From NCBI GenBank assembly GCA_038087875.1, contig CM075994.1, positions 5,644,001-5,708,000 of the forward strand: a stretch of DNA of 64,000 bases, read 5' to 3'. The notes under the pieces are model-generated. The model ran no database searches, was not told the origin of the DNA, and saw nothing but the letters and a program-made list of their open reading frames with translations. The translations under genes and the position numbers were made by a program. Below, piece after piece: positions 40,401-43,400 of this stretch. Source of the DNA: Malacoraja senta. Lineage: Eukaryota. Every line of letters begins with the position of its first letter. Position 1 is the stretch's first letter.

Positions 40401-43400
40401 CCTGGAGAACATACAGACTTCGTAAAGATAAGCAGCCGTAGCCATGATCGAAACCAGGTCTATGGGGCAGTAAGCATGGTGAGGTAGCAATTCAACCGCT
40501 GCGCAACCGATGTGTGATAGATTCTGTTTGAAATAAAATGATCACAAGCAATGTTAATATTCTATCCGAAATAGAGAAAATGAAGGAAAAACTCGAAGTT
40601 TGTGGTAAGATGTGTATCGTTCAGATTCGATGATTGTGTCGTGATAGTCTGGCCAGATATCTCATAGTACATAAACAATTAGTACTTCGCTGTCTTATTG
40701 AAGTTGGTTGTATTATATTTGATATTGCGCTATAACGAGGTAAAGTGGTGATCTAATCTCCAACATGTTAGATGTGATTTTCTTGTAATTTCTTATTTAT
40801 TTAGGATTCAATAATTCAATTATAATTTATTGTCACATTACCATTTTACAACTAATTTCTTTGTTTTGCGTACAACACGGCGAACTCATACCGTGCATCT
40901 CACCTTGGCAGTACACAAAGAGGAGTCACGTTTCTGTCGTCGATGAAGTTACAAAAATGTAACCAACAGTCTTATCTACTCGCTGCGATGAAACAGGCCT
41001 GGTGCAGTAAGCGGCCGCAGGGGGGGGGGATTCCGGCTGGTCCCCCTCCCCCTTCGACCTCGGCGGTCTCTCCGCTGGAATGTCTATCCCCCACCCTAGT
41101 TCTCGCCCAACCCCTTTCCGGGACCAGTTCTATCTCAACGACCCGTCGAAGTACCCCCGTCGTTTTCGGTGTACAAACCCCACCCCCACCTACGTTCTCG
41201 GCGCATCCCCGCCGAGTTGCTCTGAGCGGCCCTCCCAGCTATTTGCGACTCGTGACCCCTCGCTCTCTATGACGTGGGTCCCACTATGCATTCGGCGCTC
41301 CCACTGGCTTTCGGCCCTCCCGAAAGTCCTCGGCAGCGGGGCCCCACTAAGTTTTTGGATGTTGCCCGCGGTGGCCTCCACTTTCGGCGGAGAGGGTCCC
41401 TCCTTGCTCTCGGCGGCCCGCCCGTTCGGACGTGCGGCTCAGCCGCGCAACTCGGTATCTGCGGCGCACGGATTCCTCAAGCCTGCCGTTGGGATGGGCC
41501 GCGACTCGCCAGGACTCCTCAAGCCTCGCACTTCTGGCCGTTGATTTCAGTGCAAATGGACAAAGAATAAAATCCATCAGGGATCTGGGAGCTGAAGAAA
41601 CATAATAAGCGAGTCATGATCATCAATTATACTGTGTTAGAGGAAATTGGAGATTCGGAGAAAAATCTCACAATTTAAGCATTTTTTTGCAAATCAAAAA
41701 TAGAGGCTCCCCGAGAAAAGTCGAAAAATAACATATATTAATATATATAATATATATATATGTATATCAACAGAGGGTATGCTGATCAGAAAGGACGTAT
41801 GTAAGTTGAATTCCTTCTGAGAACCCAGTGTGGCAAGACTTTAACCGTGCACATGTGATTTCGAAGTCACCTATGTAAGACCATAAGATTGTAACAAACT
41901 GGAGCGGAATCAGGCCAATCACAAGTTCACGTTCACAAGTTGTAAGCGTAGAATTATACTATTCGGCTCATCGAGTCTACTTCGTCATTTAAGCATGGCT
42001 GATCTTTGCCTCATAATCGTATTCTCCCTCAATAACCCTTGACACCCGTTCTAAACAAGAGTTTGTCTATCTCTCCGTCAATAATATCCACTGACTTGCT
42101 CTCCACAGCCATCTGTGGCAATGAGTTCCACAGATTAATTATCATCAGACTAAAGAAATTATTCCTAGCCTCCTTTCTAAAAGAGCACCCTTTAATTCTA
42201 GGGCTATGACCTCTGGCCATTGAATCCCCCACCAGTTGATACATCCTATTGACATCCACGCTATCTATGCATTTCTAATTATTATGTAGTTTCAATGAGG
42301 TCCCCCTTCAACCTTCTAAATCCCAGCGAGACGAGGCCCAGTGCGAACAAATATTCGGTCCATCGAATGTACTCCGCCGGTAAGACACGGCTAAACTATC
42401 TTTTCTTCTCCATCCAATTATTCTGCCTTCTTCCAGAAACATTCGTCGCAGTCACTAATCGAAACACGAGACTGTGCTTTGATTTAATGTTAATATTCGG
42501 TAATATTTTTTATATTCTCAAGTTGCGACGCGTTCTGCTTGAAGTAACGTGATCTTAAGCTATGTCGATGTTCCATCAGTAATAGAGTCATTGAAAGGAA
42601 AACTCGATAATTGCGGTAAGATACTTGACCTTCAGTTTGAAAGATTGTGGACAGTTTGTCCGACGAGATGTCTCTGTAAACATGAGCGACTGAAACGTTG
42701 TTAGCTTCTTTGAACTGCTTGTATTTTATTTACTAATGCTCTACAACGAGGTAAAACAGTTATCCCATATCCAAAACATTATCGTCGACATTGCTTTCAC
42801 TTTCTTGCTGATCACTTGCCAAACATAGTGAATGGTGGGGCACCGCGAACAGTTGTAGATTAGATGGATCTGGGAGTGCACGTACATCGTTCCTGGAAGT
42901 TGGTGGCGCAGTTAAATCGGGTGGTGAATAGAATGTTTGGCACATTGGCCTCATCAGTCAGAGTATTGAGTATAAACTCTCGGGGGCCATGTTGCAGTTA
43001 TATAAGGTGTTGCTGAGGCCGCACTTAGAGTATTGCGTTCAGCTCTGCGCAGTATGTCACGGGAAATATGTTGTCAAGTTTGGAAAGGGTGCAGAAAAGA
43101 TTTAAAAGCAACTTGCCAGGACTCAAGGGTCTCAAGTTTTGTGAGACTTTGAGCAGGCTGCGACTTTTTTCCTCGCAGCGTTGGAGAACGAGGAGTGTTC
43201 TAATAGAGGTGGATAAAACCGTGCAATAAATAGATTGGATAAATGTAGAGTCGGGCGAAACGAGAACCTGAGTGCAAAGATTTAAGGTGAAGGATGAAAG
43301 ATTTTATTGCCATCTGCGGGGTGACTTTTTCACACAAAGTTGAGGACTGTTTGGAATGAGCTGTCGGAGGAGATTCTTGAGCCAGGCGGTATCGCAACGT

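Follow-up and report, generated by a model that had tools for sequence, protein, structure and literature searches.

Exon organization of the gene

The window analyzed in this study (64,000 nucleotides of contig CM075994.1 from Malacoraja senta; positions count from its first letter) contains 36 predicted micro-exons on the plus strand, and profile scans traced exons in phase 1, each 24-36 nt long, over a stretch that starts ~30 kb ahead of the window and ends at position 63083. Three micro-exons (1415-1441, 2984-3019, and 8784-8810), with counterparts in a protein of Narcine bancroftii and in a paralogue (both described below), are followed by an array of 13 tandem units (10421-44892), each of which consists of a 36- or 30-nt exon and a 27-nt exon (shortened to 24 nt in one unit), all in phase 1. 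Seven further micro-exons (45745-63083), the last of which (63054-63083) is 30 nt long and ends in A, separate the array from the terminal B30.2/SPRY exon, which lies just past the window on the same strand (L011:2011-2531) and has an uninterrupted frame as far as its stop codon. The gene belongs to the B30.2/SPRY-domain proteins: the terminal exon matched Pfam SPRY (E = 3.8e-12), with no match to Pfam PRY at E 0.001, and its best matches in PDB were the B30.2 domains of BTN3A1 (E = 7.9e-22, residues 4-160) and TRIM proteins. A conceptual model of 47 exons, which includes two exons with damaged sites and excludes the start exon, gave a frame of 633 residues whose sole stop is terminal (at least 633 amino acids for the protein). 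By eye, the array is predicted to encode a coiled coil.

Introns contained LINE-like reading frames together with two long repeats rich in CT (20766-24320, 54301-55541, and 57387-58581). Outside the window, a related series of 27-/36-nt exons lies upstream on the minus strand (L005:4081 to L007:1185), and further phase-1 exons of 15-36 nt were found on the plus strand ~119-158 kb from the window start (L016-L020), where they likely form another gene of this kind; a second B30.2 exon was not found in the 264 kb examined.

The paralogue (G000:C18:3642500-3734200) has an unexpanded exon chain, with one unit of a 30-nt and a 27-nt exon versus 13 units in this gene, and a B30.2 exon that is 71% identical; contig C18 carries ~25 of the 150 scored SPRY matches. 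A single two-exon unit has likely been amplified to 13 copies in the host gene. The short ATG exon of the paralogue matched the N-terminus of the Narcine protein and leads straight into micro-exons, and by comparison with the paralogue the start exon of this gene would fall within a 200-N gap of the assembly upstream. An exon-like stretch after this gap was rejected as a candidate because it is intronic in the paralogue. Within 30 kb upstream of the first exon, inspection by eye of the open frames of at least 62 residues revealed no Ig or membrane exons, and none was recognized by motif in the paralogue. C-type lectin neck repeats were rejected as an identity for the array, there being no Lectin_C match on the contig among the 96 matches listed.

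The best match to the gene was a Narcine bancroftii protein, which carries the automatic label "zinc-binding protein A33-like" (XP_069775384-90) and was the only close match in a search of representative proteins; closer orthologues were sought among shorter proteins (none) and among longer proteins (2 of 188 candidates). The two proteins share a B30.2 domain of 63% identity and matching N-terminal micro-exon peptides, whereas the Narcine protein has no repeat array and comprises 353-378 amino acids, versus at least 633 in the conceptual model of this gene. Its five isoforms differ by their starts and by blocks of 6 and 9 residues (exon borders having been deduced from protein gaps), and SPRY alone was found by Pfam in the longest. 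Since the longest Narcine isoform is SPRY-only, and the paralogue's ATG exon leads directly into micro-exons, the product is likely a soluble coiled-coil and B30.2 protein, neither a full butyrophilin nor a TRIM.

Translation and constraint in the array

None of the 26 array exons contains an internal stop (neutral mean of 6.9, P = 0.003; 4.3 at half the intron rate, P = 0.04), and donors of 25 of the 26 are GT or GC (P = 0.00025 at the full and 0.04 at half the intron rate), although these P values are too small because three remnants of the repeat unit were left out of the counts. The absence of internal stops and the retention of donors, together with the open 633-residue frame into B30.2 and the annotated Narcine orthologue, suggest that the array is probably translated. 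Constraint on its amino acids appeared to be weak. The pN/pS values by exon class were 0.72, 0.96, 7.6 (4 copies), and 0.50, and exon identity was clearly higher than that of the intron flanks solely in the 36/30-nt classes; the 27-nt exons were barely above their flanks (0.72 vs 0.68-0.71, and 0.65 vs 0.63-0.64). Stops have likely been purged from the array while its residues drifted with little constraint.

The three remnants (20497, 26164-26244 [26191], and ~36950-37084 [37016]), recognized by intron-only profiles, have the exon missing, truncated, or replaced, and the truncated one may retain an 18-nt exon (26164-26181). Splice sites are damaged at the acceptor of 37414 and the donor of 43755. 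GC donors (GCAAGT) occur in three of the 27-nt array exons (17922-17948, 25303-25329, and 37414-37440) and also in the lone 27-nt copy of the paralogue (C18:3713256), the other array copies having GT except for the dead donor at 43755. Three units (25989-26024, 40569-40604, and 44459-44494) lack AG at the 36-nt position; an AG located 6 nt further on yields 30-nt exons that stay in frame, like that of the paralogue. In 19851-19892, a hexamer duplicated at 19851-19862 brings the length back to 36 nt, and 29360-29386, which has lost its acceptor, remains in frame as a 24-nt exon by means of an AG 3 nt further on.

The predicted codon split between 41800 and 42580

One junction in the array departs from the others. 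The 27-nt exon 41774-41800 (CAG acceptor, GTAAGT donor) ends in T, the 36-nt exon 42580-42615 (CAG acceptor, GTAAGA donor) starts with TA, and a 779-nt GT-AG intron (41801-42579), which holds an interspersed repeat at ~41930-42400 (families D13 and D18; depth spike), lies between them; joining the two predicted exons in phase 1 gives the split codon T|TA (Leu). These bases had been reported in the first-pass annotation and are as described there, as is the AA start of the other 36-nt exons (12 of the 13 in the window, with one TA). On the other hand, its statement that every other exon ends in G was too broad: the 36 exons in the window end in G in 34 cases, in T in one, and in A in one (63054-63083), and two upstream micro-exons beyond the window likewise end in A. 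With its terminal T, the donor of 41774-41800 scored 7.8 by a simple matrix, inside the span of its class (6.7-13.0).

Contigs derived from the reads of run X1, which may represent the same sample as the source of the genome assembly, were identical to the assembly over 41775-42129 and 42291-42968, with no other letters. For runs X6 and X7, no piece over the two exons was listed, to which no weight is given. Since both 41800 and 42580 are covered, an assembly error at one or both bases, a doubt raised earlier in favor of which nothing was found, is extremely improbable. A second AG lies 6 nt inside exon 42580-42615 (42584-42585) and would create TAG if joined to the T of 41800; three sister units and the paralogue have no acceptor other than the AG at this position. 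Splicing prefers the first AG, and by a crude acceptor score the 42580 site was slightly better than the internal AG (1.0 vs -0.3).

The T at each position is derived: comparison with sister units and the paralogue gives G as the ancestral base at 41800 and A at 42580, the paralogue having A at the base equivalent to 42580 and G at the end of its sole 27-nt exon. The split codon has therefore likely changed from G|AA (Glu) to T|TA (Leu), and, because its parts are separated by 779 nt, a one-step tandem mutation of DNA is excluded. We infer, with a probability of approximately 0.7, an ordinary two-step substitution (GAA to GTA to TTA) that avoided TAA, in exons of a likely coiled-coil and B30.2 gene under weak constraint. 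The first step would have been A to T at 42580, converting G|AA (Glu) to G|TA (Val), and the second G to T at 41800, converting G|TA (Val) to T|TA (Leu); the route through GTA would be the only order without a stop codon. With the TA start in place, G to T at the last exonic base of the donor would have been tolerated, helped by the consensus GTAAGT. The G|TA intermediate was not encountered.

In the opposite order, G to T at 41800 would have created TAA first, the stop being tolerated because the exon was skippable or the paralogue gave cover, and A to T at 42580 would then have been selected. Such a rescue would explain why the only T end faces the only changed 36-nt start, and a paralogue does exist. 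However, the stop must have persisted in spite of an available stop-free route, a relative (organism B) likely carries T at 42580 (see below), and double substitutions within codons of primates and yeasts gave no sign of positive selection in the accessible part of PMC9500374. We regard this order as quite improbable.

Organism B was the single relative compared. Its contig spans 42208-42643, with listed differences at 42547, 42591, 42592, 42595, and 42598; none is listed at 42580, 64 letters from the contig end, although 11 of the 34 differences of this piece are listed, and the rest appear to fall in the intron repeat. Since no difference is listed at 42580, this far from the end, organism B likely has T there, as judged from its sequence. 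Position 41800 is covered by four pieces, each of which has one or more differences that are not listed, apparently within 41784-41812 and no more than 30 letters from the piece end. Thus, organism B is likely T|TA or the predicted intermediate G|TA, and an orthologue with T plus AA, which had been named earlier as the case that would overturn the pairing, was not encountered. The four listed differences in exon 42580-42615 (42591-42598) are all non-synonymous and affect three codons; at 42591-42592, two adjacent bases of one other codon differ. Their density was higher than that in the preceding intron (four in the exon vs five listed in 200 intron bases). Selection on this exon is possibly relaxed or diversifying.

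Is the pair itself evidence for translation, as had been proposed? Given one T end and one non-AA start, the chance that they are adjacent was 1/8 (junctions of this class) to 1/13 (36-nt exons), and at least one of eight junctions with T plus a sense codon arose in 11% of neutral runs on intron-flank trees (4% at half the rate). After T, 16 of the 46 exon starts would yield a sense codon. Under a codon model (one TTA and no stop at the seven other junctions), the likelihood ratio of translated over neutral was 0.6-0.9; it does not exceed 1 because, of the two orders in which the bases can mutate, only one is open when stops are avoided, so that a double change at one junction has about the same or a slightly higher chance without translation. 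Per junction, the frequency of the event under stop avoidance is low (0.001-0.016). Double hits are common: departures from the class consensus at two or more sites were counted in 22 of the 237 internal array codons, and in 5 of 19 when the two focal exons are taken by themselves. The pair is weakly more than chance; in view of the likelihood ratio, the double hits, and the neutral frequency of 4-11%, the paired bases are compatible with translation and do not show it alone. The two exons are probably spliced together and translated, as concluded earlier, yet the paired bases offered as evidence do not carry that conclusion.

These values also bear on the view that the two exons are unused or mostly skipped and that the T bases arose independently as neutral changes and face each other by chance. 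The ratio below 1 and the neutral frequency both favor it, as do the damaged sites of neighboring units (37414 and 43755), the amino acid changes at all four listed differences between exon 42580 and organism B, set against the five in the preceding 200 intron bases, and the presence or absence of 6-/9-residue blocks among the Narcine isoforms, by which skipping occurs in gene models of the family. Nevertheless, each focal exon is 9 bases off its class consensus and in spite of this has kept AG, GT, and an open frame, and the array-wide tests of stops and donors point to translation. A neutral coincidence is thus unlikely, though it is the alternative to which we give the most weight.

Alternatively, a selected device of splice coupling might make exon 41774-41800 productive only if it is joined to 42580 in its 36-nt form or to one of a few others, any other join truncating the protein before B30.2 or triggering decay; or Leu itself might have been selected. 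The T of 41800 gave six stops and five sense codons with the 11 downstream acceptors, and the internal AG of 42580 would also give a stop; the accessible text of PMC5938342 describes truncation of tails by alternative splicing in chicken BG genes. However, this junction is found in one unit of 13, and five of the 11 skips give sense codons (e.g., TAT on joining the next type-A 27-nt exon, 44866), so that the earlier claim that skipping of 42580 usually terminates the protein holds for little more than half of the acceptors. We consider selection for coupling or for Leu improbable; under the two-step substitution, if exon 41774 depends on exon 42580 at all, this would be incidental.

Only splicing would bring the two bases side by side, as a change of GA to TT in the message, and a single event at the RNA level may be imagined, in which GA became TT in a cDNA that was copied back to both exon ends with the intron kept. 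The available portion of PMC6633265 names GA to TT as a tandem-mutation signature of polymerase zeta, and reverse-transcriptase elements are abundant nearby. However, the changed bases are not adjacent in DNA, as that signature requires, but 779 nt apart, conversion by cDNA removes introns according to PMC4256211 (likewise in part), and two single steps suffice; such an event is very improbable. Taken together, a cDNA-level GA-to-TT change written back with the intron kept and a T end that locks 41774 to 42580 and sets retention of B30.2 are also improbable.

Comparison with known systems

The most likely reading of the junction is one instance of a codon that changed at two sites while avoiding a stop, which in itself matters little. 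Because intron-split codons bar one-step tandem mutation, they offer a clean set of sites for tests of stepwise against compensatory change, for which one site is insufficient. The host gene is of greater interest than the flagged pair, with a likely soluble coiled coil plus B30.2, a micro-exon unit amplified 13-fold, and a build similar to the tails of chicken BG. No paper on paired substitutions across an intron (titles and abstract starts), on this gene, or on enterophilins was found in the literature searched, whose coverage mostly excludes subscription papers.

The junction resembles the codon double substitutions treated in PMC9500374 and PMC6916188, as far as the accessible parts of these papers go, in that two changes fall in one codon and one single-step intermediate is a stop; it differs in that a 779-nt intron interrupts the codon and one change lies at the donor -1 position.

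Enterophilins are soluble mammalian proteins with heptad repeats and a B30.2 domain. By this description, they may resemble the predicted product of the present gene. TRIM proteins would carry RING and B-box domains; judged by proxy, neither was present, the longest Narcine isoform having no such Pfam match and the paralogue having a short N-terminus. The Ig domain(s) and membrane segment of butyrophilins and BG were likewise absent by the same proxies (the Narcine orthologue and the paralogue), as was a signal segment, while butyrophilins share the B30.2 at the end, which BG lacks. In gene structure, there is similarity to the cytoplasmic tails of these two families. According to the available parts of the reports, the heptads of chicken BG tails are encoded by 21-nt exons whose first codon is split (PMC5938342), and the number of heptads is variable among butyrophilins (PMC12841164). 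Many small exons with split first codons are thus common to both systems, with heptads and a variable repeat number in BG/butyrophilin; the phase-1 symmetric micro-exons of the present gene, whose coiled coil is predicted by eye, differ in being 27, 36, and 30 nt long, not 21.
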